Source of the DNA: Mnemiopsis leidyi
Lineage: Eukaryota
Assembly (NCBI GenBank): GCA_048537945.1
Contig: CM108484.1
Location: forward strand, 19,073,034-19,137,033
DNA: 64,000 nucleotides
Direction: 5' to 3'
Below the pieces are notes generated by a model that was given only the letters and a program-made list of their open reading frames with translations, ran no database searches and was not told the DNA's origin. This document shows positions 540 through 47,750 of the stretch, piece by piece (position 1 is the stretch's first letter; every line of letters begins with the position of its first letter). The translations under genes were made by a program, and so were the position numbers.

Positions 540-2300
540 CATCAAATTAACACGTGATTTTGTTACTTCAACGTTGGAGAAAGAATCACGTGGCGCGCCG
601 CACGTGGTAGCCCCTCGACCAATAATGAATCGCGGCACTTTTGTGCCGTAAAACAATCGTATTTCGCCCGACTCTCGTTCAGCTTTAGCTGCGTGAGTCG
701 GGTATCACCGCGACAATCGGAAAGAAACGCGAACGTAAAAAGATCTGCGTGGCGCCCGGCAGCGCCCGGTAGCTTTTGCCTCGCGCCCGTCCGTCCTAAT
801 TTCAAGCTAAACTCACAGGGATGTACGTATTTAGCTGAAATATAAATTATAATATCTTCATGCGTTGTCGAGGTGTTACCCAACTCGCGCGCATTTCGCA
901 GCTTGCTGCCTCCCTGGCGTTATGCGTTAGATTGTAGGTTGATAACCTACTGTCGCGGCCATCACGCGCTGTCACGCATTTCTGGCCTGGCGACTTTCGA
1001 AGAAATTCTAGACGCGCATCGCCCGTTGAGCGTTAGACGGAGATCATTTCATCAATTCCAAGCGTCACTCTTTTGATTGCAAAAGGTTCATCTTCAGTTG
1101 ACGAGATTATATGCGTCTAACGTTCTAACGAAAGCTTTAGCTGCGTGAGTCGTTGTCTCACGTTGTGACCCTTTTCAAAAAAATTTTTCAAAAATTTTTA
1201 AAAATTTGAAAATTTTTTTGAAAATAGGGTCTCAGGAATTACATTAGAAATAAGAAAATAACAGCGCCGCGCGCGCCAAAAGACCTGAATATGGAGGGGT
1301 ACGCTAGCATACCCCTCCAAAACGGCGGGAAATCCGTATTTCCTATAGCCCCCTCCGGGGGGGGGGGGGGGCGTGGCCGCGCGCTTCGCGCGCGCCGGAG
1401 GGCTACCGCTTCGCGGCAGCAGGGCTATGCAACGTGTAGCAAGTGAGTCGGGTGACAAACCTTCAGTATACTTGTACAGCAGCGCGCTCCCTCCCGTCAT
1501 TTTATTCTCCTCTATTCGCTAGTTCGAATGAGGGTCGGACAAAGTCAGACAATCAGTATACATTCACTTAACCATGTGCTTGCACACGCTACGCGCGTGG
1601 CTGCTACAGACAACCTTATAACGCATTTGCGGCACTGCGGCACTTGCGGCACTCCAATGCGGCACTTGCGGCACTCACATGCGGCACTTGCGGCACTGCT
1701 TAAATGAGAAATGCGGCACTTGCGGCACTCTCGAATAAAAAATGCGGCACTTGCGGCACTTTTAGATTGCAAATGCACGTATTAAACGTTGCCTAGCCCT
1801 GCGAAGCGGTAGCCAGGCCACGACCGGCGGCGTAAACGCATGTGATCAATGTAGTATTTAAATTTAACATTGTACAGCTCGCTCACTCCAAACACATTTT
1901 ACGCCGCGGCGTTGCTCTAACCATTAAATGCGCGTAATACTTTAAATATTATATTAGGTGAGACGAGTGACATCCGTTTATTGATTTTGTAATTAACTTT
2001 AAAAAGCTGGTAGTTGCTTGTCGAGGGTTTTATTTGACTCTTGCGCGGCTCGTAGCTTTGCTGCTCTCTCGTTTCGTTAAAACGGTAAACGGATATTATC
2101 CCGTTAAGTAGCTGCTTGTCTGGGGACCTCGGTCTAATTGTTGGAGGGATCGGAAACGTAGAGAGAGCCGCGCATTGCCTTGTAAAGTAGCTGCGCGTTG
2201 GTCAGACCCCTGGTTCATAGCATTGTCACCACGCAAGGTCAACAAGCGCGCCGCGCATTATCAAGTATGCAATCAAATTTGAATCAAGCACTCAGACGGC
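540..2300. repeat. Composite repeat cluster 1: modules of a nonautonomous foldback-like family (GTCGCGGTGATACCCGACTCACGCAG palindromic module, GTTAGACGGATATCATCTCGTCAAG terminal module, TTGTAGGTTGATAACCTACTGTCGCGG module, G-run/GGCTATGCAACGTGTAGCAA module, tandem AATGCGGCACTTGCGGCACTC x~7 at 1600-1780)
   Basis: The same modules recur at 14.9-16.6 kb, 32.04-32.13 kb, 37.4-37.7 kb and 39.6-40.9 kb in both orientations. ORF-track ORFs here (563-883, 1198-1500, 1545-1778) lie entirely in repeats. Confidence 0.55.
1465..1550. mobile_element. ~85-bp mini-element (TTGTACAGCAGCGCGC...GGACAAAGTCAGACAA) flanked by CAGTATAC / TCAGTATAC direct duplication
   Basis: The same element appears at 16568-16634, 39605-39690 (reverse complement), 40425-40500 and 40850-40930. 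The 1465 and 16568 copies show clean target-site duplications. Confidence 0.5.
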
Positions 2301-2580
2301 AAAACTATGCTTCTTGAATGCCGGAGCTCTATAATGTCCTATAATGATAAATCCTTATCTGCACTTCAATAAGTGATTAATTGATAATGGATAATTATGC
2401 CAGCATCATCTTGACGAGATTATATTGTCAAACGTTGCCTGACCTGCTGCCGCGCTTGAAAATGGGCCGCAACGCAAGGCAAAGATCAAATATCCGTTAA
2501 GGAAAAGGCAATTTTAGGAAAAGACAATTTTATTATGTTAAAAAACATTAACTCTCTATGGAATATTTCCCCACTGTGTA

Positions 2581-3723
2581 ATGGACAACGATGATTGGCC
2601 TTGTGCACAGTGTGGAAAAAACCTCAGATCAGAAGCAGAGGCTATTGGCTGTGACTCAAGAAGCTGTAATCGTTGGTTCCATCCATCCTGTCTTACTGGG
2701 CTAACTCAATTTGATGTTGATAGCAACAAGTGGTTCTGTCATCTTTGTTCTGGTAACAAAAACAAGGATCAACCCACACCTGAAAATTGTGATATCCTTA
2801 AGAACGTCAAATGGGGAGCCATCAAAGGCAAAGAGCTCCTTGATACTATCACCAGAGCATATGATGAGATTGTGACTTGGCGCCAAAATGTCTTCAAACT
2901 ACCGACTGGGAAGGCTGGAAAGACATTTCTCAAGGAATTAACCACTCTGTTCAGTCTCTTCAATAATGACACCCCATCTAAACCGATATCATTGACTCTA
3001 ATAATGATATTTTGTCCATTAATGCTTCAAAAACCATCCAAGAACTCTAAATCTAAGGACCATGCCAAGTGTCTAGAATATCGGCTGAAGCTTTGGGAAG
3101 CAGGAGATCTAGCTGGACTGCTTAGAGACGGTAGAGCTATTCAGGCACGTCTTCTGAAAGGAAAGAGGAGGCACACAGATGACCACGAAAAAAGATTCTG
3201 CAAACTTATGCTGGAAGGAAAGGTGTCAGCTGCCCTTAAATGGGTCACAGAAAGAAGATCAGGACTTCTGGAGACAAATCAAAAAGTTGTTGATGAGCTG
3301 CTAATGAAACACCCAAAAGCAGAACCTATGCACAACGATGTAGCTCTGGAGGGTCCACATTTCCTTCCACCAAAAGTAACATATCATCCAATCGATGCCC
3401 AAGCCATTTACTTAGCAGCTAAGAACACAAATGGAGCAGCTGGTCCCTCTGGAATTGATGCAGAAGGCTGGAAAAGATTCCTCTGCTCAAGATCCTTTGG
3501 AAAAGAAACCAGTAATCTATGTTTCGCCATCTCAGAATTCACTAGGAAAGTAGCATCTGAAAATCAGGACCCTGATCATCTTTCCCCATTCACAGCTGCT
3601 AGATTGATACCTCTGGACAAGGGTGATGGTAATCATGGAGTTCGTCCCATTGGGATTGGGGAAGTGCTTCGGCGCATTGTAGGAAAAGCTATCATAAAAC
3701 TGTACGACCTTATCAGATCGTAA
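2581..3723 (+). CDS. TE ORF fragment: PHD zinc finger plus N-terminal part of reverse transcriptase
   Basis: CAQCGK..C..C..WFHPSCL...WFCHLC matches a PHD finger. PLDKGDG-HGVRPIGIGEVLRRIVGKA matches RT domains 1-2. Confidence 0.55.
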   Translation: MDNDDWPCAQCGKNLRSEAEAIGCDSRSCNRWFHPSCLTGLTQFDVDSNKWFCHLCSGNKNKDQPTPENCDILKNVKWGAIKGKELLDTITRAYDEIVTWRQNVFKLPTGKAGKTFLKELTTLFSLFNNDTPSKPISLTLIMIFCPLMLQKPSKNSKSKDHAKCLEYRLKLWEAGDLAGLLRDGRAIQARLLKGKRRHTDDHEKRFCKLMLEGKVSAALKWVTERRSGLLETNQKVVDELLMKHPKAEPMHNDVALEGPHFLPPKVTYHPIDAQAIYLAAKNTNGAAGPSGIDAEGWKRFLCSRSFGKETSNLCFAISEFTRKVASENQDPDHLSPFTAARLIPLDKGDGNHGVRPIGIGEVLRRIVGKAIIKLYDLIRS

Positions 3724-4799
3724 TGTAATTGTAAAGTGATAAGTTGATATCTGAGTTAAGATGAATAATGATTGTATATTGTGTATTAACCTTGATATCA
3801 CTACAACTAAATTATAGTTTCTATTTACCTTGTAGCAATGACATGGAGAACTGACTGCGCTAGGAGATCGGAGAAGAAGAATGAAGTACTGCAGAAGATA
3901 GAGCCTAGTCCAGTGTAAGACCGATGGCAGAATCTAGCAGAAGATAAGTAAAGCAGAAGGCAGAGTCTAGCCCAGAAGGAGGCAGAAGGCAGAGCCTAGC
4001 TGAGAAGAACCACAGGGGATAGCAAAGGCAGGTCCTAGTGGTAAGTAATTTAGGTGAAATTTATTATTTGATGACTTTGGTAATTTAGGAATCCGATCGA
4101 TGTGTTTGAGAGTTTTAGTTAGTTAGGAAGTTTATGTATTTAGTTAGGAGTAGTCTTTCTTTCTTAGATTTGTTTACTTGTGTTTACTGTTACTGTAGTT
4201 GTTGTGTGTTCAGGTTCTGTTGGAGTTTTCTGTTTGGAAGTTTGGGTTTTTGGGAGAAAGTAAAAGTGTACGGGACAAGGGAAAAGTTTGTGTTAAAGGA
4301 AAGTTGGACAGTGGTCAGAGCAGGAGTTACAAGTACGGGTTACCAGCAGAAGTTGATTTTTAGAGTGAGTTACATTTACACCAAAGATGTCAAAGATTCA
4401 CCAATTTAATGTTCAAGTTTGAAGTCACGAATGACGAAGTTTTTATTTATTGTAAATTATAATTGAGAGACAATTTAGTATTACCAATTTATGTCATGTA
4501 TTATATTTTGTACAGTTAGTATTTATTTATAATTGAATCACACACACATTCACATTGAGTTTAGAGTCAGAGTAGAGTTTCACCCTGTTAGTTCGTGTTT
4601 ACTTTAGTTCAGTAGTAGTAGTCCTTGGATTAGTTAGTAGTCTCTAGTGTAGTAGTGTGTTATTCTTTTACGTGAGTTTGTATTTTGTATTTTCTTATTT
4701 ACTGTATTATGATTTTCTGATTACAGTTTATGTCTCAAGATCAAAGTGTATTATTTCTGACCACCACTCAAGTTTTAATATAACAAAAACTGCTGAAAT

Positions 4800-5319
4800 A
4801 CGATGTTGCTCAATGTACAGCTCCCATGCAACTATGTGGAGGGGTTAAGGGTGGTGTTGAAGCACTGAAGCAGCAGTCCATGGTCTCAGAGCTGTATGGG
4901 AAGACAATGAAACTGAGGCGGTGCTTCTTGTTGATGCAAGGAATGCCTTTAATTGTATGAATAGAAAAACAGGACTGCAGAATACTGGCATCATCTGCCC
5001 AGAACTGTTTACCTACCTGAACAATACATATCAGAAACCATCAGACCTATTTGTAGCTGGTTCAGAAGGGCTCAAAATCAAAAGCCAAGAGGGAACTACA
5101 CAGGGTGATACAACTGCTATGGCATTTTATGCACTGAGCCTTATGAAACTAATCAAAGATGCAAAGACCAAAGCTCCAGATGCCAAAGAAGTGTTCTATG
5201 CTGATGATGGAGCAGCAGGTGGCAAGTTAGGTCCACTTAGCCAGTTTTGGAAATACCTTCAAGAGGACGGCCCTAAATATGGATATTTTGTGAATCCCTC
5301 AAAGTCCTATCTCATCGTG
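4800..5319 (+). pseudogene. TE RT core (motifs A-E), frameshifted at its start
   Basis: AVLLVDARNAFN (motif A), FYADDGAAGG (motif C), FVNPSKSYLIVFG (motif D/E). Confidence 0.5.
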
Positions 5320-6725
5320 TTTGGAAACTATGGACTGTGTTATGGACCTGTGTTATGGACCTCTTAGAACAGGGTATTCCAGTTGATATACTATTTTTTG
5401 ACTTTAAAAAAGCCTTTGATAGAGTTCCACATAAAAGATTATTGTTGAAGCTTGAATGCTTAGGAATTAAGGGCAAAGTTTTAGATGTTATTAAAGATTT
5501 CTTGATTGGTAGAACTTTCAGGGTTTCATTGCAGGGTGAATTTTCTTCTATTAAAGATATTCTATCGGGAATACCACAGGGTTCAGTCTTGGGACCCTTG
5601 CTATTTATCTTATTCATAAATGATCTACCGGATTGTTTGAAAAGTACTGTAAAGATATTTGCAGATGACTTAAAGCTTATTGCTGATTTGTCTGATAAGA
5701 GTGTGGTTCATAGTGATTTAGTGCTATTGGAAGATTGGGAGAAAAAGTGGCTGTTGGAATTTAATACTGATAAATGTAAAGTTCTCCATATAGAACACAA
5801 TAATAATGAACATTTAGATTATGTGCTTAATGGTAGTAAATTGAAAGAAACTGATCAGGAAAAAGATCTTACCTCTGGCAACTTGCTTTGGAATGATCAG
5901 ATTGAATCATGTATTAGTAAAGCTAACCAAATGTTATGTTGGATTTCTAGAAACCTCATAAGTAGAGAGAAGTTGTTAATGCTTAGGGTGTACAAGACCT
6001 TAATCAGGCCACATCTCGAATATTGTGTTCAGCTTTGGAATCCTGCAGCAGAGCATGGAAATTGGTCTTTGATAATGAGGATTGAGAGCGTCCAGAGACG
6101 CTTTACTCGGATGATTGAAGGGGTAGGCCTTCTTCCTTACTCTGAGCGACTGCAGATTCTACAGCTGACTACCCTCGCTGAGAGACGTTCGAGAGGAGAC
6201 CTGATTGAGGTTTATAAAGCCAGCCAGGGTTTATCCCATTTATCTGGGGTCTTAAATTTTAGTAGATCAGGAGTTAATTTGGTATGTAAACCAGGGAAAA
6301 GTAAAGTTTCCAAAATTAATCGTATTCGTAGAAATTTTTTAAATGATAGGGTTATGTCATTTTGGAATAAGCTACCCATAGAGGTGAAGACTGCATTAAA
6401 TTTAAATGTTTTTAAATCTCATCTTGAGATTTTTAAGGGCAGAACTAAAGCTTTAGGAATTTGTGGTAGTGGGAACTTCTGGGATATTTCTGATGAGATC
6501 TTAAATCGTATTGAAAGTGGAAGTTATTTAGAGAATAAGATAAGACATAATACCTTTCTCAAAGATAATCCTTTTGTAGCTAGAAAAAGGTTTATCAACA
6601 TAAATTAGGATTTTGAATTTCTGTATTTTAGCTTTTAATTGAATTTTAGATTTTTTAAAGATACTTTTGGAGATTAGTTGTGATGATGCTGGCATCATTA
6701 TTTGTTATTTATTTTTTATTTATTT
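5320..6725 (+). mobile_element. CR1/L2-like LINE, 5'-truncated 3' fragment (RT C-terminal half plus 3'UTR), nested insertion with 6-bp TSD ATCGTG (5314-5319 and 6726-6731)
   Basis: ORF 5337-6608 carries FFDFKKAFDRVPH, GIPQGSVLGPLLF, IFADDLKL and the CR1-type C-terminal signature LEYCVQLWNP...ERRSRGDLIEVYK. It is about 90% identical in protein to the copy at 16640-18379. The host-element frame KSYLIV|KPGVRK is restored across the insertion. Confidence 0.7.
5337..6608 (+). CDS. LINE ORF2 fragment (reverse transcriptase, fingers-palm-thumb and C-terminal CR1 tail)
   Basis: The RT motifs and CR1 C-terminal signature listed for the parent feature. Confidence 0.7.
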   Translation: MLWTCVMDLLEQGIPVDILFFDFKKAFDRVPHKRLLLKLECLGIKGKVLDVIKDFLIGRTFRVSLQGEFSSIKDILSGIPQGSVLGPLLFILFINDLPDCLKSTVKIFADDLKLIADLSDKSVVHSDLVLLEDWEKKWLLEFNTDKCKVLHIEHNNNEHLDYVLNGSKLKETDQEKDLTSGNLLWNDQIESCISKANQMLCWISRNLISREKLLMLRVYKTLIRPHLEYCVQLWNPAAEHGNWSLIMRIESVQRRFTRMIEGVGLLPYSERLQILQLTTLAERRSRGDLIEVYKASQGLSHLSGVLNFSRSGVNLVCKPGKSKVSKINRIRRNFLNDRVMSFWNKLPIEVKTALNLNVFKSHLEIFKGRTKALGICGSGNFWDISDEILNRIESGSYLENKIRHNTFLKDNPFVARKRFININ

Positions 6726-6729
6726 ATCG

Positions 6730-7922
6730 TGAAACCAGGTGTAAGAAAAGAAGCAGAAGAACTGTTCCCAAATGTCAACATCACCACAGAAGGTAGTCGA
6801 TACCTTGGCTCCTTTATTGGTACAGAAGAAGGTACAAAAAAGTTTGTCCAAGACCAAGTCAAACTCTGGTTGAGGGATCTTGAGGGCCTATCTAACATCG
6901 CTCAACATGAACCTCACCTATCATACTGCGCCTACATTTACGGGACAAGTAAAAGATGGAATTATCTCATGAGAACTACACCTCAAATATCAGAACATCT
7001 TGAAGATATAGAATGTTACATCATCAAAAGATTGATTCCATCTTTCACAGGTCATAAAGTGGGCATTGACCATCGAGCCATATTCACCCTACCTGTTAGA
7101 CATGGTGGTTTGGCTATAGAAAATCCTGTGGAAATTGCGGATCGAGAATACCAAAACTCATTGAGAATGACAGAAGTGCTTTGGAAAGCAATTTTCAACC
7201 AAGAGCAGAGCATCAGGATAGCAGATACAGAAGACCAAAAGCTTATTGATGACATAAAGAAACAAAAAGAGGAAACATTTATTCAAGTCAAGTTTGAAGC
7301 TATAAGTCATCTGTCCCCAAAAGATGCAAGATTTGTCGCACTGGCATGTGAGAAAGGTGCATCATCATGGCTGTCAACTCTGCCACTGGAGGAATATGGC
7401 TTCTCATTGAATAAACAGGAATTCAAAGATGCTGTTGCCATGAGATACAACTTCCCAATTGAAGGTAGATCAAAAACATGCATATGTGGTGAAGAGAACA
7501 CACAAGACCATTCACTGATTTGTAAACGAGGAGGTTTCACATCAATCCGACATAACACCATTAGAGACACTACAGCAAATCTCCTGGAAAAGATATGCTA
7601 TGGAGTTGAGATTGAGCCTGCTCTCCTTCCTGTAGGAAACCGCAAGCTACCACCTGGCTCAAATGTAAAAGATGGTGCTCGATCAGACATAGTTGCTCGA
7701 GGATTCTGGACACCTTTAGATAAGGCCTATTTTGATATAAGGGTTCTTCACCCAGGGGCTAAATCTAATGAGAACAAATCCTTCGACAAGATGTACAATC
7801 AGCACGAGGAGGAGAAGAAGAGGCAGTACAACAGCCGAATCCAAGACATAGAACATGGAACCTTCACTCCGCTTGTTTTCTCGACCTCAGGAGGAATGTC
7901 CATGAAGGAGGAATGTCCATGA
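6730..7922 (+). CDS. TE ORF fragment: RT thumb plus CCHC / REL-endonuclease-like C-terminus of the RLE-type element
   Basis: CICGEENTQDHSLICKRGG (C..C...H....C) followed by RSDIVARGFW ... YFDIRVLHP. Confidence 0.45.
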
Positions 7923-8482
7923 AGAAACTTAGTGAGGGACTGAGCTTCAGGACCCAACAAGCTTACCCAGACACTATCAATTATGTAAGGAGAAGGCTAA
8001 GGTTTGAACTTCTGAAGACCACCCTTATCTCCATCAGAGGACACCGAGGAAGGTTCTTCCAGAGACCAATCGACCTAGAAGAGATTGATCTTAACTTAAT
8101 AGCAGACTATAGAGTCAAAGACTAAAGAGTTAATCATTCTGAAGAGAGAAGAAAGAAGAAAATAAGATTTTAAATTATTTTAGGTAGATTTATTCAAATT
8201 GGGTTTTAAAGGGTAATTTATTATTTTTAATTGATACTGTATTTTAGGAGGAAGCTCCGGTCAATGATGAAGCAAGACTCCTTGAGTGTGAGGCCGTGAG
8301 CTCCCTCCCCCTTTTTTTAAAAAAAAAAAAAAAAAAAAATTTATTTCATTTTTACGTCTGATAATAGTACATTCAATTAAAATATATTTAGTTTATTCCT
8401 CCAGTTATTTAAAAATCCGCTTTCCGTCACTCACATTTGTGAGCATACAAACTTTGGCTTAACATCTTAAAATTTCCGATTT

Positions 8483-14889: not shown

Positions 14890-16445
14890 CATGCCCTTCG
14901 AGGAATTCAATTAGCAAATCAGCTACTTGACTCAGATTCGAACTTGGAACCTACAGCACACGAAACCGGTGCCGTAACCCCTCAACTAAAATAGTGCCGC
15001 ATTTTTCGGAGTGCCGCATTTTTTTACGGCACTCCAGAAAAACGCGGCACTCTGGCTTACAGTGCCGCATGGCATTTCTACGGCATATGACGCTTAGCTT
15101 AGGGGTTAGTCAGTGTTATGGTGCAACCTGTGTGCTTAGCACATATGACTGATGACGTTAGAGGCAATTCAACCTAAAAAACATAAATTTTACCGTAAAA
15201 TTAAAATCGATCTCAATCATGACACTTGAGCTGAATCGATCGCCTATAATTTTTCAAAATCTTTAGACAAAGTCTAAATTTTTTATAGGTAGGTATAAAT
15301 ATTTAATCGGATTGACGTATTTTTCGTACTGATTCCTGATCGCCCCAGCCTAACGTCGCGGCCCGTTTTCAAGTCGAATAAAGTTCTTATGAAAATAGGT
15401 CGGCAGGGCTTCCGCTACGCGGCAGCAGGCCTGGCCTGACAACGTCAGGCAAAATAGTATTAGTCCCATATGACAGAGGGTAAAAAGGCTTTCTGCCAAA
15501 CCCAATGCACAATGGGTCACGTGACCAACCTTGACGAGATGATACCGTTCTGCGTGAGTCGGGTATCTGTTGTCGCGGTGATACCCGACTCACGCAGCTA
15601 AAGCTGAACGTTTCGCTAGAACGTTAGACGGATATCATCTCGTCAAGGTATCTGCGTGAGTCGGGTATCACCGCGACAAGACCAACCTTTCATGATCATC
15701 TTACCAATTCTATATCAAATATCGTTTTTAAATTTACTATTTTATCTCTATGCTTTAATTCAACAATTATTCGAATTTTATTTCTTCGGTTACAAAATAA
15801 TGTCCGTAGTAATAGTATTAGTTGACGGGATGATAGCCGTCTAACTCTAACGTTCTGACTAAATTAAACCAGAACACAGAAACGTCAGAGAGTAGCAAAG
15901 CTACGAGTCGGGTAACACCTCAACAAAGCTAAAGTTTTGGTAATGCATTATGATATAATATAATGCAATTGCCACCCGAGAGTAAGATGGAGAGACTAGT
16001 CGGAGAGTGTCACGTTTTGGTGCCGTTGTAGGTTGATAACCTACTGTCGGGGCGCGGCCATCACGCGCTCCCACGCCTGGTGACAGAAAATGAAATTTTA
16101 GTCGCGCATCCAGCATCGCCCGTTAAAATTATGACTTAATGGTGCCGCAATTTTCATCTTACTAGAGCTAGAGTGCCGCGACTGTGACATGTGAGTGCCG
16201 CATGTGAGTGCCGCAAGTGCCGTAGTGCCGTAATTTTTATTTTAGAGTGCCGCATGTGAGTGCCGCAAGTGCCGCATGATAGTGCCGCAAGTGCCGCATT
16301 ATAGTGCCGCAAGTGCCGCAGTGCCGTAATAACGTAATAAGGTGGGCTCGGCTGCTACCTCTAGTGGCGCGCGCGACGCGCACAAAAGGGCCCTGGTTAG
16401 AGCAAAGTATACAAAATTCAAATACTATATTATTAATGCTTATTA
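14890..16445. repeat. Composite repeat cluster 2: tRNA-like fragment (14890-14990), AGTGCCGCA tandem blocks (14990-15060, 16180-16330), a 120-bp palindromic mini-foldback (15535-15650) flanked by 8-bp GACCAACC duplications, and a TTGTAGGTTGATAACC module (16025-16080)
   Basis: The modules are shared with cluster 1. CTTGACGAGATGATA...TATCATCTCGTCAAG termini enclose the CTGCGTGAGTCGGGTATC palindrome. GACCAACC is found at 15527-15534 and 15683-15690. Confidence 0.5.
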
Positions 16446-16567
16446 ATAAATAAAAAATAAATAACAAATAATGATGCCAGCATCATCACACCTTATCTCT
16501 CAAACTATCTTAAAAGCTTTAAAATTCAAAATAAAAATCTCAAATACCAAAAGTTTAATCCTAATTT

Positions 16568-16634
16568 GTACAGCAGCGCGCACCCTCCCGTCATTTTATT
16601 CTCCGGGACAAAGTCAGACCGGACAAAGTCAGAC
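16568..16634. mobile_element. 67-bp mini-element (TGTACAGCAGCGCGCACCCTCCCGTCATTTTATTCTCC...GGACAAAGTCAGACA) with 10-bp TSD AATCCTAATT (16558-16567 and 16635-16644)
   Basis: The LINE copy at 6609-6700 has the uninterrupted 3'UTR, so the empty site is visible (TTAGGATTT|TGAATTT). A perfect 10-bp duplication flanks the insert. Confidence 0.6.
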
Positions 16635-16639
16635 AAATC

Positions 16640-18379
16640 CTAATTAATGTTAATAAACTTTTTTCTAGCTACAAAAGGGTTCTCCCTGAGAAATTCATTA
16701 TGTCTCATTTTATTCTCAAAATAACTCCCACTTTCAATACGATTCAAGACCTCATCAGAAATATCCCAAAAGTTCCCACTACTGTAGAGTCCTAAGGATT
16801 TAGTTTTGCTCTTAAAAATTTCCAGATTAGATTTAAAAATATTTAGATTTAATGCAGTCTTCACCTCTATGGGTAGCTTATTCCAAAACAACATTACCCT
16901 ATCATTTAAGAATTTTCTTCGAAAACGATTAATCTTGGAAGCTTTACTCTTCCCTGGCTTACATATCAAATTTACTCCAGACCTACTAAAATTAAAGACT
17001 CCAGCTAACTGGGATAAGCCCTGGCTAGCTTTATAAACTTCAATCAGGTCACCTCTCGAACGTCTCTCAGCGAGAGTAGTCAGCTCTAGTATCTGCAGTC
17101 GCTCAGAGTAAGGAAGAAGGCCTACCCCTTCAATCATCCGCGTAAAGCGTCTCTGGACGCTCTCAATCCTCATTATTAAAGACCAATTTCCATGCTCTGC
17201 TGCAGGATTCCAAAGCTGAACACAATATTCGAGATGTGGCCTGATCAAGGTCTTGTACACCCTAAGCATTATCGATTTCTCTCTACTTATAAGGTTTCTA
17301 GATATCCAGCACAACATTTGATTGGCTTTACTAATACACGATTCAATCTGATCATTCCAAAGCAAGGTGCCAGAGGTAAGGACACCCAGATCTTTTTCTT
17401 GAACAGTTTCTTTTAATTTATTACCATGGAGCACATAATCAAAGTGTTTATTATCATTATGTTCTATATGAAGTACTTTACATTTATTAGTATTAAATTC
17501 AAGTAGCCACTTTCTCTCCCAATCTTCCAAAAGTTTTAAGTCATTGTCAACCACTGTTTTATCTGACAGATTTGCTATCAGTTTTAGGTCGTCAGCAAAA
17601 ATCTTTACAACACTCTTTAAACAATCTGGTAGATCATTTATAAATAAAATAAATAGTAAAGGTCCCAAAACTGAACCCTGTGGTATTCCTGATAAAATAT
17701 CTTTAAATGAAGAAAATTTACCCTGCAAAGAAACCCTAAAAGTTCTACCAATTAAGAAATCTTTGATAACATCTGTAGCTTTCCCATTAATTCCTAAGCA
17801 TTCAAGCTTTAACAACAATCTTCTATGTGGCACTCTATCAAAGGCTTTCTTAAAATCAAAAAATAGTATGTCAACTGGAATGCCCTGCTCTAAGAGGTCC
17901 ATTACACAGTCCATAGTTTCTAACAGATTGCTTAGACAAGACTTGCCTTTAACAAACCCATGTTGATGAGGGTTGATCTTGTCCTCAACAAATACCAGAA
18001 TTTCATCTCTAAGAATCTTTTCATAAACTTTACACAGAATACAAGTTAATGACACAGGTCTATAATTTAAAGGGTCAGTTTTAGACCCACTCTTAAATAG
18101 TGCAGTGAGATTAGCAGATTTCCATATTTTAGGTAATTCACCACTATCTGTGCATTTTCTAAATAATTTAACAACAGCTTCAACAAATGAAGAATCGTCA
18201 GCTAATGACTTTAAAAGTTTAGGGTGAATACCATCAGGACCAAAGCTTTTAAAACAATTTAAGCTCTCTAGTTGATGTTTTACTATGTCGAAAGTAATAT
18301 TTATGTCAGACAAAATATCAGGTTCAATGTCAGGTCTCTCAACACTTGGTAGGTTTTCTAAGCATATAAGCATATACAA
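16640..18379 (-). CDS. LINE ORF2 fragment (reverse transcriptase)
   Basis: NYRPVSL, FFDFKKAFDRVPH, GIPQGSVLGPLLF, FADD and the CR1 C-terminal tail. Confidence 0.7.
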   Translation of the reverse strand: MYMLICLENLPSVERPDIEPDILSDINITFDIVKHQLESLNCFKSFGPDGIHPKLLKSLADDSSFVEAVVKLFRKCTDSGELPKIWKSANLTALFKSGSKTDPLNYRPVSLTCILCKVYEKILRDEILVFVEDKINPHQHGFVKGKSCLSNLLETMDCVMDLLEQGIPVDILFFDFKKAFDRVPHRRLLLKLECLGINGKATDVIKDFLIGRTFRVSLQGKFSSFKDILSGIPQGSVLGPLLFILFINDLPDCLKSVVKIFADDLKLIANLSDKTVVDNDLKLLEDWERKWLLEFNTNKCKVLHIEHNDNKHFDYVLHGNKLKETVQEKDLGVLTSGTLLWNDQIESCISKANQMLCWISRNLISREKSIMLRVYKTLIRPHLEYCVQLWNPAAEHGNWSLIMRIESVQRRFTRMIEGVGLLPYSERLQILELTTLAERRSRGDLIEVYKASQGLSQLAGVFNFSRSGVNLICKPGKSKASKINRFRRKFLNDRVMLFWNKLPIEVKTALNLNIFKSNLEIFKSKTKSLGLYSSGNFWDISDEVLNRIESGSYFENKMRHNEFLRENPFVARKKFININ

Positions 18380-27479: not shown

Positions 27480-28460
27480 ATTCAAACTAATTGTGCTTTG
27501 GTTTTCCTCTAGAAACTTACTGTTAACTTCCTCTCAACTTACTGTAAACTTCCTTTAAACTTACTGTTAACTTCCTCTAAACTTACTGTTAACTTCCTCT
27601 AAACTTACTGTTAACTTCTTCTAAACTTACTGTTAACTTCCTCTAAACTAACTGTTAACTTCCTCTAAACTTACTGTTAACTTCCTCTAAACTTACTGTT
27701 AACTTCCTCTAAACTTACTGTCAACTTCCTCTAAACTAACTGTTAACTTCCTCTAAACTTACTGTTAACTTCCTCTAAACTTACTGTTAACTTCCTCTAA
27801 ACTTACTGTTAACTTCCTCTAAACTTACTGTTAACTTCCTCTACACTTACTTTTAACTTCCTCTAAACTTACTGTTAACTTCCTCTAAACTTACTGTTAA
27901 CTTCCTCTACACTTACTGTTAACTTCCTCTAAACTTGCTGTTAACTTCCTCTAAATTTTTTATTAAATTCCTCTAAACTTACTGTCAACTTCCTTTAAAC
28001 TTACTTTTAACTTCCTCTACACTTACTGTTAACTTCCTCTAAACTTACTGTTAACTTCCTCTACACTTACTGTTAACTTCCTCTAAACTTGCTGTTAACC
28101 TCCTCTAAAACTTTTGTTAACTTCCTCTGAACTTACTGTTAACTTTCTAAAAACTTACTGTTAACTTCCTCCAAACTAACTGTTAACTTCCTCCAAACTT
28201 ACTGTTAACTTCCTCTAATCTTACTGTAAACTTCCTCTAAACTTACTGTAAACTTCCAGTAAAATTACTGTTAACTTCCTCCAAACTTTCTGTTAACTTC
28301 CTCTAAGCTTATAGTTAACTTCCTTTAAACTTACCGTTAACTTCCTCTAAACTTACTGTAAACTTCCTCTAAACTTACTGTAAGCTTCCTCTAAACGTAC
28401 TGTTGACTTCCTCTAAACTTACTGTGAACTTCCTCTAAACTTACTGTTAACTTTCTGATT
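27480..28460. repeat. 22-bp minisatellite (CTTACTGTTAACTTCCTCTAAA)n, about 44 units, filling almost all of NRBP intron 2
   Basis: Units are contiguous, with point variants such as GCTG, CACTT and TTTT. Confidence 0.9.
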
Positions 28461-31375: not shown

Positions 31376-32040
31376 TTGTTGTTACTGATTACATGTTCGT
31401 TTCGGCACGTGGGTATAAATCATGGAACAGCTAAGCGAGGTCTGAGCTGAGTCTGTAAGAAACAAGAGAGTTTGATAAGAGTACCGGAAATAAGAACGTT
31501 CTCTTAAGCCAGCTAATTTAGCAAAAATGCAGCTGTCGTTGTTAGCCACGCCTTGTTTATCAGTAGCCTAATGCATTGATACCTGCCACTGCAAGTGTGT
31601 ACAGTTGTTAACTTTTAAGGGTATCAAAACTAAGATGAGTGGCAGTGAGACCGCCAACGAGTAGTTTTTATTTTTAAGAATAAGGATGGAGCCAATAGAA
31701 GAAAATTGCACCATGCCAGTTTATAGTTGCCACCTGCCCTCCCTCGTATAGGGACCCATAAGAATTCTAATTAAAATTATACTCACGTGCCGCAACTTTA
31801 GTGTTTAAGTTTGACATAGACTTAGTCAGAAATCAGGTGTCCGCAAAAAGATAATTTTTGGGCAAGGAATGCACTGGGAAGATTTATTTTAGGACCGATA
31901 ACAGCGATTGACCTGTCAGCGTAGGTAAAAATATACAATTTTATATGACAGGTAAGTAGAAATGCTGTAACTGTAAGTTCTGGGTCTGGTAAATGTTTGA
32001 TGCAGTTTGAACATTAAAGTTACCTCCCCCTTAGTTATTT

Positions 32041-32130
32041 GTCTCACGTTGTGACCCCCCTCCGAAGGGAGGGGGGAGGGGGCGTGGCCGCGCTGCGCGC
32101 GGCAGCGGGGCTATGCAACGTGTAGCAATC
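32041..32130. repeat. Fragment of the composite repeat family (GTCACGTTGTGACCCCCCTCC...GGCTATGCAACGTGTAGCAA module)
   Basis: Near-identical to 1150-1460. Confidence 0.6.
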
Positions 32131-32262
32131 AGTTATCACGTTACCTTCAGTTATCACGTTACCTTCAGTTATCACGTTACCTTCAGTTATCACGTTACCT
32201 TCAGTTATCACGTTACCTTCAGTTATCACGTTACCTTCAGTTATCACGTTACCTCCCCCCTC
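32130..32262. repeat. 18-bp tandem repeat (CAGTTATCACGTTACCTT) x7, abutting the exon-4 acceptor
   Basis: The last unit degenerates into CCCCCCTCAG|TTATCTACATTCC, which is the exon-4 start. Confidence 0.85.
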
Positions 32263-32824: not shown

Positions 32825-32965
32825 AAAAACCGACGAGATCTCACTGAAGAAGAACGAAGACTAGTGTTAGAAACGTGCGGGGAAAGCAAGAGAAACTTTC
32901 TGAAGGAATGTTTCAGCAACAGTGCCCCTGTGGGTCAGCTCATCAACCATACTATCTTCATTGAG
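32825..32965 (+). CDS. NRBP: NRBP-like exon 6 (KKKKNRRDLTEEERRLVLETCGESKRNFLKECFSNSAPVGQLINHTIFIE)
   Basis: Aligns with NRBP1 REFIQKCLQSEPARRPTARELLFHPALFE. The donor GAG|GTAACA is the first unit of the 41-bp tandem array. Confidence 0.65.
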
Positions 32966-33330
32966 GTAACAATCATGTGCTTATCAACCATACTATCTTC
33001 ATTGAGGTAACAATCATGTGCTCATCAACCATACTATCTTCATTGAGGTAACAATCATGTGCTTATCAACCATACTATCTTCATTGAGGTAACAATCATG
33101 TGCTTATCAACCATACTATCTTCATTGAGGTAACAATCATGTGTTTATCAGCCATACTATCTTCATTAAGGTAACAATCATGTGCTTATCAACCATACTA
33201 TCTTCATTGAGGTAACAATCATGTGCTTATCAACCTTAATATCTTCATTGAGGTAACAATCATGTGCTTATCAACCATACTATCTTCATTGAGGTAACAA
33301 TCATGTGCTCATTAACCATACTATCTTCAT
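32941..33330. repeat. 41-bp tandem repeat x~9.5 built from the last 26 nt of exon 6 plus the first 15 nt of intron 6, so each unit carries GAG|GTAACA
   Basis: CATCAACCATACTATCTTCATTGAGGTAACAATCATGTGCTTAT repeats, with the first unit being the genuine exon end. Confidence 0.9.
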
Positions 33331-34701: not shown

Positions 34702-34747
34702 GTAAACTTCAAGTATATTCTGAGTTACATTTTGTGTTAATGTTAGT

Positions 34748-34900
34748 GTTCATGTTATTGTTATTGTTATTGTTATTGTTATTGTTATTGTTATTGTTAT
34801 TGTTATTGTTATTGTTATTGTTATTGTTATTATTATTGTTATTGTTATTGTTATTGTTATTGTTATTGTTATTGTTATTGTTATTGTTGTAATTGTTAGC
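34748..34900. repeat. (TTATTG)n microsatellite, about 25 units, in NRBP intron 10
   Basis: The sequence shows the run directly. ORF-track poly-L and poly-N ORFs are artefacts of it. Confidence 0.95.
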
Positions 34901-35009
34901 GCAAGTGCTAGTCTTATTGTGGTTGTTAGTGTTATTGTAGGTGGTAGTGTTAGTGTATCTGTTAGTGTTAGTGTAAGTGTTAGTGTTCATAACGGTTTTT
35001 ATTTCACAG

Positions 35010-35065
35010 AAGACAATCCTTCGAAGCTTACTGACGAGCTGATAGATTACAATCTTCTTAATATA
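35010..35065 (+). CDS. NRBP: NRBP-like exon 11 (EDNPSKLTDELIDYNLLNI)
   Basis: Aligns with NRBP1 ENIPELAAELVQLGFI. The donor ATA|GTGAGT is the first unit of the 56-bp tandem array. Confidence 0.6.
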
Positions 35066-35830
35066 GTGAGTACCACAGCTCATTAGAATCATTCCTGATA
35101 GATTACAATCTTCTTAATATAGTGAGTAGCACAGCTCATTAGAATCATTCCTGATAGATTACAATCTTCTTAATATAGTGAGTAGCACAGCTCATTAGAA
35201 TCATTCCTGATAGATTACAATCTTCTTAATATAGTGAGTAGCACAGCTCATTAGAATCATTCCTGATAGATTACAATCTTCTTAATATAGTGAGTAGCAC
35301 AGCTCATTATCTAATCATTCCTGATAGATTACAATCTTCTTAATATAGTGAGTAGCACAGCTCATTATCTAATCATTCCTGATAGATTACAATCTTCTTA
35401 ATATAGTGAGTACCACAGCTCATTAGAATCATTCCTGATAGATTACAATCTTCTTAATATAGTGAGTAGCACAGCTCATTAGAATCATTCCTGATAGATT
35501 ACAATCTTCTTAATATAGTGAGTAGCACAGCTCATTAGAATCATTCCTGATAGATTACAATCTTCTTAATATAGTGAGTACCACAGCTCATTAGAATCAT
35601 TCCTGATAGATTACAATCTTCTTAATATAGTGAGTAGCACAGCTCATTAGAATCATTCCTGATAGATTACAATCTTCTTAATATAGTGAGTAGCACAGCT
35701 CATTAGAATCATTCCTGATAGATTACAATCTTCTTAATATAGTGAGTAGCACAGCTCATTAGAATCATTCCTGATAGATTACAATCTTCTTAATATAGTG
35801 AGTAGCACAGCTCATTAGAATCATTCCTGA
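35039..35830. repeat. 56-bp tandem repeat x~14 built from the last 27 nt of exon 11 plus 29 nt of intron 11, so each unit carries ATA|GTGAGT
   Basis: CTGATAGATTACAATCTTCTTAATATAGTGAGTAGCACAGCTCATTAGAATCATTC repeats, with the first unit being the real exon end. Confidence 0.9.
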
Positions 35831-35904
35831 TTTAAAGCAAACTTAATTTCTGTACCATTTCCTTAATTTGGCGATGTTTGTATTTAATTTCTCAATCCAT
35901 CCAG

Positions 35905-38809: not shown

Positions 38810-39500
38810 CAAAAGATGTGATATAAATTGACCAAAACCCAAAACTTGGGTGTATGTGACCGCTTTTTAAAGACCCTCGATTAAATCGCTATCAAAAGTA
38901 TCGCAGCTTAATAAACAACGTTATCTAAATGCGTTAAAAAGGTGTGATATCGAAAGTTCTGACCGCTATTTCTTAACTCGAAAACGGTCGCTTGCTTTGG
39001 CCGTCACGCCATTAATGTCAGTTGTCAGGCTCATCAAATTATGAAAACCTTCAAATTTTTAAAGAGTATTTCTTTCAAATCTATTGGAATACTGCTTATA
39101 TCTAAGTTAAACTGTTAAATGCCGAAGTTCAATAATTGTAGGCAGTCCATATTGACCTACCGCAAGTTGACCTATAATTTTAGCTTCACTTTAGTGCTCA
39201 GATAACAACTTCAAGTTCATACCTGCCTCGAACTTCAGTACAAAGCGTTAACAATCTTTCTTTGAACTGAAAATTTTGTCGAACAATTTGATGAGCCTGA
39301 AAACTGACAAATGGCGTGACGGCCAAAGCAAGCGACCGTTTTCGAGTTAAGAAATAGCGGTCAGAACTTTCGATATCACATCTTTTTAACGCATTTAGAT
39401 AACGTTGTTTATTAAGCTGCGATACTTTTGATAGCGATTTAATCGAGGGTCTTTAAAAAGCGGTCACATACACCCAAGTTTTGGGTTTTGGTCAATTTAT
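38810..39500. repeat. Large inverted repeat (foldback): arms about 38810-39050 and 39285-39500, with a ~235-bp spacer
   Basis: GACCGCTTTTTAAAGACCCTCGATTAAATCGCTATCAAAAGTATCGCAGCTTAATAAACAACG... recurs as its reverse complement. Confidence 0.8.
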
Positions 39501-39589: not shown

Positions 39590-40930
39590 AGTTTGAAGTT
39601 GTCTGACTTTGTCCGACCCTCATTCGAAGCGAATAGAGGAGAATAAAAATCAAATGACGGGAGGGTGCGCGCTGCTGTACAACCTCAAGCAACATAGACT
39701 AGACTGAGGTCCCCAGGCAATGCAACATATTCAATCATCAATATTGCTAAACCAGTTACTCTAACCCTAGAGCCCTTTTACGCGCAACTGCAGCATGCAG
39801 AGATAGCGTAGCTGGTAGCGTCGCGTTCGTAAGCATCTTTGCTAAGCTAACATTGACGAGATGATATCCGTCTAACATTCTAACGAAACGTTAGGAGGAG
39901 AGCAGAAAACTGCGAGCCGCGCGCGGGTCGGGTAACATCTCGACAAAGCTAACATAGTCCTGTGGCTCGCGCGCCCGCGTCCTAATTTCGCGCTAACAGC
40001 TAAGCTCGTGCACAGGGATATACGTGATACGTGTTTAGCAATAAGCACCTGAGCTGGTTATATAGGTGAGCTAAACCAGTATAGTATAGTCCTTTCTAAA
40101 CACATATATATCCCTTGCTTAAGCTTACTAGCTTAGCGCAAAATTAGGACGGACGCGCGACGCAAAAGCTCACAGATAGGCCACGCGCAGCGCGAGCCAC
40201 AGGGCTATGTTGGTTTAGCAAGTATAGCCCATATGTGTGTGCGCGCAAATTCGCGGACAGGTCGCCAGACACGGCAGCTCGCTCACACAGGTGAGAACTT
40301 GTCGCGATGTTACCCGACCCGCGCGCGGCTCGCAGTTTTCTGCATTCTAACGTTTCGTTAGAATGTTAGACGGATATCATCTCGTCAAGTGAGAACAGGC
40401 ACACACATATGGGCTATACTTGTACAGCAGCGCGCACCCTCCCGCGTCATTTTATTCTCCGCTTCGAATGAGGGTCGGACAAAGTCAGACAAGCGCCATA
40501 CTGGTTAAACAAATTAAGCCAAGCTTTTTCAGCCAGCTGTGGTGGTTGCTAGACGTTGCCTGGCCGGCCGGCGCGCACTTTGTAGTGGAAATATGGTGGC
40601 GCACGCGAAAGGGCTCTGGTTAGAGCAATATAAATATGAAAGGGCATGATGGCTAAGTACTTTGGTCCTTGTCGCGGTGATACTCGACTCACGCAGATAA
40701 ATTGCTCTAACCAGAGCCTCTTTTCGCGCGTCGCGTAGCAACCGCGCGCGTAGCGTGCGTAAGTACCTGGTTAGGTGAACAGCTAGAAGAACGGTAAACG
40801 GATATAATCAATAATCTCGTCAAATAAGTTCCTTGAAAAAGATTAAGTTCAGCAGCGCGCATCCTCCTGTCATTTTGTTGTCGGAGATTTATTATTCTGT
40901 TCGCTTCAAATTAGGGTCGGACAAAGTCAG
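39590..40930. repeat. Composite repeat cluster 3, including a ~540-bp foldback-like element (39853-40390) with ~95-bp, ~95%-identical TIRs and nested internal palindromes, plus three mini-element copies (39605-39690 reverse complement, 40425-40500, 40850-40930)
   Basis: Left TIR CATTGACGAGATGATATCCGTCTAACATTCTAACGAAACGTTAGGAGGAGAGCAGAAAACTGCGAGCCGCGCGCGGGTCGGGTAACATCTCGACAA. Its reverse complement lies at 40290-40390. Confidence 0.6.
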
Positions 40931-42264
40931 ACAAGAAAAAGAACACACAAGTACCTTGAAAAAGAACACACTAAACCCATCTTCAACAGGCTTAAGATTA
41001 TTACTGTGCAAGCGTTATACAAATACCACAGTATTTCTGAAATCTTAAAAATCGTCGGATCTCTCAGTCCAAACCCCATTAAGAAAGGAGAGATATTTAT
41101 CCAAACGTGAAACAAATTATGTAATCTATTCATTCATGACTATCTATTCAAATCAAAAGGATATTTAGATAGGAACTGAAATTTATCTTTCTACTTCGTG
41201 GATATCTATAATCATGTATAGGAAATCATTGATTTAGCTGTAATTGCGGGGCTTGGTCAGCACAACTTCAATAATTTATAATTTTTCACAAGGGAAGATT
41301 GACTGAGAGCTTTTGAGCCTATCCTAATTTCTACAGCTTGACTAACAAAAAGAGACCTAGTAGCAAAGGGGGGTACACAATCCTCACGGTCTTTACTCTC
41401 CTATATCAGCCAGTTTTCTCAGTTTTGCATATAATTTCTCAACTAGAAAACCTTAAGTGACCGATTTTATTGCTATGACATTGATACCTGCTTTTCTCAA
41501 GCTAACAGGACCTCGTAATCTTTGGTAAAAAGTAGGATTATTAACGATTTATTTTAATTGATGCTTTTCATTTAAAAGGACCCCTTCCGTTTCATGATAT
41601 GAATTTAATTTGTTGTTTTCCTGAATTTGTTTTTTCCTACCAATGTTTGAGATTCCTTTCCAACTCTTGGATCTCATCAAGCACAATGTCTGGATCTCCT
41701 GTAAAAACTGCTGCACCCTCCAATAAACATTTCTGCCATGTTTTTCTGTGTCGTTTTTGTAATTGATTGGTCGCATCTGGCAATCGCTGTCACTCAAAAG
41801 AAACAATTTCAGATTCCAAGAATTCTGACATTCACAACTTCCAATGAAAGCATTATGAGGGTATCCATTGTCTCAACAGCTAGAGACTGTTTCCCTCATA
41901 CCCTATGTATGAAGTGTGTGAAAGTCATTTCTCAAATCAATATCAATTTTAAAATTAGATTTCACAGGCTCTTAATTCCCTGCTTTGTGAGATTGAAGAA
42001 CTTAACTTGTGTTCATAATCAAGCATATTGTCTTATATTGCCTTTCATCTGCTTTCATCTGCTTTCTTCTGTGAAAGATTATATTGTCTTATATTGCCTT
42101 TCATCTGCTTTCATCTGTGAAAGATTATATTGTCTTATATTGCCTTTCATCTGTGAAAGATTATTCAACTTGATCTGTGTTTAATTATTGAAGCTTTTCT
42201 TAGATTTCATCTGCTATATATGAAATTGATGTGATTTCTGAAACCTTATTTTTAGGATAGCAGA

Positions 42265-47477: not shown

Positions 47478-47750
<273 letters not shown>

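Follow-up and report, generated by a model that had tools for sequence, protein, structure and literature searches.

We describe here a very small mobile element, hereafter the tiny element, found in a stretch of 64,000 nucleotides of the ctenophore Mnemiopsis leidyi (assembly GCA_048537945.1, contig CM108484.1, positions 19,073,034 to 19,137,033 of the forward strand); this whole stretch is called the window below. Four open reading frames (ORFs) of the window have products exactly matching M. leidyi proteins, one being KAL5258021.1 and three belonging to genes ACHWQZ_G012835-37 on a 20.9-Mb contig. The window is rich in minisatellites and carries several reverse-transcriptase ORFs of long interspersed elements (LINEs); it gave no transfer RNA (tRNA) and no Rfam matches. 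The tiny element is a discrete, recently mobile, non-coding transposable unit of M. leidyi, and its most likely relatives are ordinary miniature DNA transposons of the same genome, introduced below as family M. Literature searches for transposable elements of the miniature inverted-repeat kind (MITEs) of Mnemiopsis returned no description of it.

Copies of the tiny element and their target sites

The tiny element is 71–92 bp long and has sharp ends, 5'-TTGTACAGCAGCGCGC...GGTCGGACAAAGTCAGACAA-3', with a consensus of about 78 bp (TTGTACAGCAGCGCGCACCCTCCCGTCATTTTATTCTCCTCTATTCGCTTCGAATGAGGGTCGGACAAAGTCAGACAA). Motif searches allowing mismatches, together with an nhmmer profile, found exactly five copies in the window, three of them (c3, c4 and c5) within 1.4 kb of one another in what is called cluster 3:

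1472..1552, plus strand: copy c1, 81 bp, 1.3% from the consensus
16566..16636, plus strand: copy c2, 71 bp, a short variant, antisense in the 3' region of the LINE copy at 16442-18379 (minus strand)
39599..39682, minus strand: copy c3, 84 bp, with a decayed duplication
40420..40492, plus strand: copy c4, 73 bp, with the left arm of the central hairpin deleted
40843..40934, plus strand: copy c5, 92 bp, diverged, with the 5' end TTAAGTTCAGC

The terminal 15-mers of the element are matched 5–6 times in the window, against 0.04–0.13 matches expected by chance. None of the five copies falls inside an ORF of at least 150 amino acids, although some frames through the element are free of stops. Further copies were reached by searching protein collections with the tiny element translated in its open frames and then fetching the corresponding DNA, which brought four more copies from short metagenome contigs of the European Nucleotide Archive (ENA) that share other Mnemiopsis repeats (L011-L014). 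The resulting nine DNA copies are the basis for everything said below about ends, duplications and variants; at least four others were seen as translated ORF segments in the proteins P0238-P0246. No copy was found in 67 kb of ENA contigs reached via LINE and retroelement proteins (L001, L002 and L004, from a related ctenophore or a divergent source), nor in the short contigs L005-L010, nor in the viral contigs and the bacterial and archaeal genomes scanned. Two pattern scans of metagenome contigs of the Joint Genome Institute (JGI) gave a single chance match, in a GC-rich bacterial gene (L003), and a search for related loci starting from the LINE protein returned none.

When the window copies are aligned together with their flanks, similarity is cut off exactly at TTGT on one side and at ACAA on the other. 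The alignment of all nine copies gives the same picture: identical sharp ends, unrelated flanks, and both termini intact despite internal deletions and duplications. The 3' terminus reads CAGACAA in 9/9 copies, and the 5' end is full length in every one of them. Several copies differ from the consensus by only 1–4%, which suggests recent activity.

Target-site duplications of 8 or 9 bp flank seven of the nine copies, six of the duplications being perfect. They were checked in register, with the ends fixed by all copies:

c1, 1463-1471 and 1553-1561: TCAGTATAC, 9/9
c2, 16558..16565 (upstream) and 16637..16644 (downstream): ATCCTAAT, 8/8
c3: decayed, no match
c4, 40411-40419 and 40493-40501: GGGCTATAC / GCGCCATAC, 7/9
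c5, 40835-40842 and 40935-40942: GAAAAAGA, 8/8
L011: CAGTCGAG, 8/8
L012: none clean
L013: CGTTGCCTT, 9/9
L014: AAAACATTA, 9/9

A constant duplication of 8 bp was considered for all copies and rejected in this register, c1, L013, L014 and c4 requiring 9 bp; the ninth base matches in all four. Exact abutting repeats of at least 8 bp accompany 0.4% of random window positions as against 3/5 window copies. At c2 and L011, the junctions are ambiguous by 1–2 nucleotides.

Evidence of insertion comes from copy c2, which interrupts one of two paralogous LINE copies, labelled CR1-like in the initial annotation, whose ORFs encode endonuclease and reverse-transcriptase domains and whose closest named relatives are from M. 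leidyi. In a BLAST alignment of the two LINE copies, 16442-16567 corresponds to 6727-6602 and 16635-17636 to 6613-5621. The two blocks overlap by about 12 bp on the first LINE copy, which is the signature of an insertion with duplication: c2 is thus extra sequence, and about 12 bp of the first copy are used twice. The uninterrupted target lies at 6604..6611 of that copy and reads ATTAGGAT, the reverse complement of ATCCTAAT; relatives of the LINE in L001 and L002 are likewise without an interruption at this site. A second, independent empty site exists for c3, which sits in a repeat with uninterrupted paralogues at 2120-2200 of the window and at 14030-14180 of L001.

The initial annotation had reported a tiny mobile element, flanked by target-site duplications, whose uninterrupted target could be seen in the first LINE copy; duplications and empty site are both borne out. 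The copy it placed at 1465-1550 is c1 with its perfect duplication, and the three copies it saw in cluster 3 are all there; its figure of six or more per 64 kb comes down to five. Its description of c2 as a 67-bp insert within a 10-bp duplication needs correction. The 10-mer AATCCTAATT is indeed present twice as a string (16557-16566 and 16636-16645), with 69 bp in between. However, the T and the A within these repeats are the terminal T and A carried by every other copy, so the duplication proper is 8 bp and the insert measures 71 bp (16566-16636, between ATCCTAAT at 16558-16565 and ATCCTAAT at 16637-16644). Of the 8–10-bp range given for the duplications, 8 and 9 bp stand, and 10 bp occurs nowhere in the family.

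Three copies within 1.4 kb of a region packed with short repeats might suggest that the tiny element is not independent at all, but part of some larger repeat that segmental duplication has spread, or a product of chance similarity. Such a view is already contradicted by the data, and we give it next to no weight. The flanks are unrelated in 9/9 copies, while the same two bases always mark the limits of similarity; six copies are flanked by perfect abutting repeats of 8–9 bp, which only 0.4% of random positions would offer; there are two independent empty sites; and no longer repeat containing the tiny element was found. It is from the sharp ends in unrelated flanks, the target-site duplications and the empty sites, taken together, that we conclude that the element is discrete and mobile.

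As to the host of the empty site, the first LINE copy (5320-6720) is itself nested in a multi-copy retroelement (2581-8330) with reverse-transcriptase and PHD-finger ORFs. An empty site for this LINE is visible in L004 (10189-10201), where a copy of the host retroelement is 92% identical. The multi-copy element 2581-8330, lying beside c1, was also considered as a PHD-finger-bearing Rehavkus or Mutator-like (MULE) partner of the tiny element and rejected: its ORFs are reverse transcriptases, and it is a retroelement.

Internal anatomy and the relation to family M

The tiny element contains two hairpins, CCTC-T-ATTCG / CGAAT-GAGG in the centre and the small GTCGGAC-AAA-GTCAGAC at the 3' end. The folding energy of the corresponding RNA is close to that of shuffled sequence (z = -0.25 to +0.65, sense strand), and an internal inverted match, ACCCTC/GAGGGT, is not significant and is lost in c2. 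The two ends share TTGT/ACAA and nothing more, so that the terminal inverted repeats (TIRs) of a MITE are lacking; in its other properties—less than about 600 bp, non-coding, multi-copy and homogeneous in size—the tiny element looks like one.

The copies vary chiefly in their interior. The central hairpin is wholly or partly gone in c2 and c4, and in c2 the 15-bp 3' unit GGACAAAGTCAGACC, repeated in tandem (16606-16634), takes its place. A 5' heptamer is duplicated in L011-L013, and in L012 a full copy is preceded by a 5' half. None of the nine copies, all ending in CAGACAA as said above, is followed by poly(A), a microsatellite or a variable tail. The initial annotation had likewise seen no poly(A) and no coding capacity, the latter in agreement with a length of no more than 92 bp and with no window copy inside an ORF of at least 150 amino acids.

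The 3' end leads to a second group of elements, which we name family M: abundant, very small MITEs of 58–315 bp with inverted ends TTGYCWGACGTTG, 8-bp duplications and the end pattern TTG[TC]C[AT]GACGTTG[TC]CTG[AG]CC. They are common to M. leidyi and to the related ctenophore contigs L002 and L004:

1153..1442, plus strand: family M member, 290 bp, ends TTGTCTCACGTTG...CAACGTGTAGCAA, duplication GTGAGTCG, 8/8
2425..2482, plus strand: family M member, 58 bp, ends TTGTCAAACGTTGCC...GCAACGCAAGGCAA, duplication AGATTATA/AGATCAAA, 6/8
32039..32128, plus strand: family M member, 90 bp, 8-bp duplication TTAGTTAT/TCAGTTAT, 7/8
L002, 8822-8881 (related ctenophore): the same element as window 2425-2482, 60 bp, duplication 8/8
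L004, 3609-3717: family M member, 109 bp, duplication 8/8
L013, 321-631: family M member
15429-15452 (minus strand) and 40546-40569: family M ends

Each terminal inverted repeat of family M (TTGYCWGACGTTGYCTGRCC) contains the dyad GTCAGAC-GTT-GTCTGAC. At 2/7 positions, the dyad has survived compensatory changes on its two sides, and 79% of its cells pair, against 12–59% with slid partners. A search for long elements bounded by family M ends, with duplications to match, brought up spurious pairs only. Seven perfect 18-bp tandem units (TCAGTTATCACGTTACCT) occupy 32129-32254, beginning exactly at the end of the MITE 32039-32128, and the first 8 bases of this array are the target-site duplication of that MITE.

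The reverse complement of the tiny-element 3' end (TTGTCTGACTTTGTCCGACC) is identical to the family M end at 17/20 positions. Among the 902 window 20-mers that start with TTGT, the background best match to the M end is about 9, and scores of at least 15 are reached by a handful of 20-mers, mostly tiny-element 3' ends and M ends. The shared 20 bases include the dyad, in the form GTC.GAC-NTT-GTC.GAC. Both families are equally tiny and non-coding, they occupy the same genome neighbourhoods, and the 8-bp duplication of family M recurs in 3/7 duplications of the tiny element. The differences are also plain. In family M, the motif forms true inverted repeats at the two termini; the tiny element carries it at its 3' end only, the opposite end reading TTGTACAGC; 4/7 of its duplications are 9 bp long; and it is absent from the 67 kb of L001, L002 and L004, in which family M is present (L002, L004). 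Since the 3' end is a diverged M repeat and the 5' end has nothing but TTGT in common with it, the tiny element can be described as having one canonical and one diverged end. On these terminal sequences, the tiny element is a likely offshoot of family M sharing one end only.

Mechanism of transposition

We consider it probable that the tiny family consists of miniature non-autonomous class II cut-and-paste elements that a DDE-type transposase moves in trans. Duplication lengths that vary little, ends that are constant and untruncated, and interiors rearranged between intact termini all argue for a DNA element; so do the absence of a polymerase III head and of an A-rich or LINE-like tail, and the homology of one end to a TIR-bearing family. 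The length of the duplications is itself typical of DDE superfamilies. In such a scenario, a DDE-type transposase encoded elsewhere in the genome would act on the tiny element in trans, cutting at the TTGT/ACAA termini, and the excised element would be joined into a target cut with a stagger of 8 or 9 bases, the repair of which would leave the flanking duplication. The internal variants have the look of faulty gap repair, which would account for the loss of the central hairpin, for the 3' unit copied into the gap of c2 and for the heptamer duplicated at the 5' end in L011-L013.

Several points weigh against this scenario. Classical DDE transposition requires two recognisable ends. In the tiny element, 30 bp of each end, tested for inverted repeats, did not outscore shuffled sequence (p = 0.15 local, 0.12 global), in line with the initial annotation, which had seen no TIR beyond TTGT/ACAA; and at the 5' end, the match to family M is 10/20 positions at most, which is the background level. 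The duplications vary in length (8 bp in three copies, 9 bp in four), while the clear members of family M have 8 bp in 4/4 cases. Neither the window nor 70 kb of related loci yielded a transposase gene; the ORFs present there in multiple copies encode reverse transcriptases together with PHD fingers, and no long element bearing the tiny-element termini was seen either. In L012, a 5' half precedes a full copy and no clean duplication is present, which would also be compatible with template switching by a reverse transcriptase. Finally, the sample is limited to nine DNA copies.

Some of these points invite a reading of the tiny element as a short interspersed element (SINE)-like retroposon, in which a short RNA would be integrated by target-primed reverse transcription, the enzyme coming from a 'stringent' LINE, with the 3' hairpin GTCGGAC-AAA-GTCAGAC plus AA as its recognition signal. 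The genome is rich in LINEs, the ends of the element are asymmetric with no inverted repeat, and a small hairpin sits right at the 3' end. Moreover, c2 has its 3' unit in tandem and skips the central hairpin; the half-and-full arrangement of L012 resembles template-switch chimeras; the duplication length is not strictly constant; and the 1–2 nucleotides of ambiguity at c2 and L011 are what microhomology priming would leave. Even so, we think a retroposon unlikely, as the features that define a SINE—a head derived from a small RNA with a polymerase III promoter, an A-rich or simple-repeat tail or one in common with a partner LINE, frequent 5' truncation and variable duplications—are not those of the tiny element. 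ARAGORN found no tRNA, and there was no Rfam match at the gathering threshold or at E<=10, a search that would cover the 5S, 7SL and small nuclear RNA (snRNA) families. The nearest thing to a B box is a weak and partial GTTCGAAT, read by eye in c1 only and deleted in the clean insertion c2. All 9/9 copies have the fixed CAGACAA end, 5'-truncated copies number 0, and the duplications of the seven copies are confined to 8–9 bp. The 3' end is unlike the LINE 3' ends of the window and the loci, yet identical at 17/20 positions to the inverted repeat of a DNA-type MITE, and the folding energy is no better than that of shuffled sequence. A spliced-leader or other small RNA was considered separately and rejected, with no Rfam match, no good splice donor and no Sm site.

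Returning to the cut-and-paste mechanism, we might speculate on how a transposase would cope with such ends. The tiny element may be mobilised efficiently with the canonical terminal repeat at one end only. In that case, the enzyme moving the TTGYC-type MITEs of ctenophores may accept a second end of roughly TTGT, perhaps with the palindrome TGTACA, or it may use one structured end (the dyad or hairpin) with no classical synapsis of two TIRs, the shift between 8 and 9 bp being a by-product of mismatched ends. We offer this as a long shot. In any case, the asymmetric ends pose a small puzzle for substrate recognition by the transposase.

Genomic surroundings, significance and known systems

Other repeats lie around the copies. 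Just upstream of the three-copy cluster, there is an inverted repeat of 218 bp at 98% identity (38823-39040 / 39285-39500, arms 244 bp apart), which may be a foldback or long-TIR element. A composite transposon made of the inverted pair c3/c4 was considered as well and rejected, its outer flanks having no duplication. Related minisatellites at 1613-1761 and 16142-16343, built from TGCGGCACT and from its complement, run in opposite directions within 60–250 bp of c1 and c2 and show no fixed spatial relation to the tiny element. Large tandem arrays take up a sizeable part of the central window (27504-28453, 32938-33330, 35039-35831, 34735-34987 and 47482-47734), with units of 22 bp x 43, 41 bp x 9.6, 56 bp x 14, (TGTTAT)n and (AC)n.

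Two M. leidyi proteins predicted outside the window, P0238 and P0240 (ACHWQZ_G016581), include translated copies of the tiny element. The former has a 7TM-like N-terminus followed by repeat-derived sequence, and the latter is a reverse-transcriptase model; in both, gene models have probably read through into repeats. Since copies end up translated in gene models in this way (P0238, ACHWQZ_G016581), cataloguing such elements would improve annotation. Another observation from the protein collection is that ctenophore-type LINE proteins (P0050, P0125 and P0146) are filed under bacterial metagenome-assembled genomes (Moritella sp., Saccharospirillaceae bacterium), which suggests that contigs of animal hosts were binned into these bacterial genomes.

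Mobile elements of ctenophores are poorly catalogued. The tiny element offers a clean and datable case of recent transposition in this group: sites occur both with and without the insertion, several duplications have no mismatch, and there are copies at about 1% from the consensus. Through it, a bigger group of very small MITEs comes into view, apparently unclassified, 58–315 bp long, with 8-bp duplications and a dyad in each terminal repeat.

How, then, does the tiny element compare with known systems? Among DNA transposons, hAT and P elements make 8-bp duplications, that of hAT being constant and accompanied by short inverted repeats starting with YARNG. The tiny element differs from hAT in the 9-bp duplications of four copies and in its ends, TTGTAC... 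and TTGTCT..., which have no YARNG motif. Helitrons make no duplication, insert between A and T and have the ends 5'-TC ... CTRR-3'; with its duplications of 8–9 bp and its TTGT...ACAA ends, the tiny element does not look like a Helitron-derived miniature. SINEs of the UnaSINE1/UnaL2 type, mobilised by stringent LINEs, are similarly short and non-coding and have a 3'-terminal stem-loop followed by a few fixed bases in place of poly(A); the tiny element differs from them in having neither polymerase III promoter nor small-RNA head, no partner LINE tail, no 5' truncation and only a narrow range of duplication lengths.

Merlin elements make duplications of 8–9 bp and have inverted repeats of at least 24 bp with a terminal 5'-GG (PMC8101967). 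The tiny element agrees with them in duplication length and departs from them in its ends, which begin with TT and are not inverted repeats. For MULEs, duplications of 8–11 bp have been described, some families, e.g., VANDAL and Curupira, having no TIRs (PMC6446971). Both the duplication length and the absence of inverted repeats are thus in keeping with Mutator-like elements, a matter of compatibility only and not of kinship. Like VANDAL and Curupira, the tiny element is mobile with no recognisable inverted repeats and makes duplications within the MULE range; unlike it, these elements are kilobase-sized and encode a transposase, and no MULE transposase was seen here.

These comparisons bear on another possibility, namely, that we are dealing with a regular MITE of one of the named superfamilies with 8–9-bp duplications (hAT, P, Merlin or Mutator-like) that has lost its inverted repeats by decay or had only short ones from the start, such as a miniature derivative of a non-TIR Mutator-like element. 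The duplication lengths fall within the MULE and Merlin ranges, and the termini stay intact despite internal rearrangements. On the other hand, several copies are only 1–4% from the consensus, so that the family as such lacks inverted repeats, and decay is not the cause; the TT ends are not the GG of Merlin (PMC8101967), nor is the hAT motif present, and no transposase of the hAT, P, Merlin or Mutator-like type was found nearby. We therefore regard a regular MITE as quite unlikely.

For the asymmetric miniature DNA transposon that we favour, a partial parallel is Microuli, a miniature element of Aedes aegypti with subterminal inverted repeats (MSITE; Tu and Orphanidis 2001). As far as it is described in PMC2872659, where it is cited, Microuli makes TTAA duplications, is miniature and non-coding, apparently transposes with no terminal inverted repeats, and has a short motif in common with a TIR-bearing MITE of the same genome. 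It differs from the tiny element in the TTAA duplications, as against 8–9 bp here, and, as cited there, in its clear subterminal inverted repeats, for which the non-significant ACCCTC/GAGGGT is no counterpart.

Overall, the view of the initial annotation that the tiny element is atypical for known classes is overstated, as duplications of 8–9 bp are normal for several DDE superfamilies (PMC6446971, PMC8101967). Nor is its size exceptional, the same genome having TIR-bearing MITEs of 58–60 bp with 8-bp duplications and a 17/20 match to its 3' end. No new class of element is required: the tiny element is best filed as an asymmetric-ended miniature DNA transposon, less exotic than was proposed.

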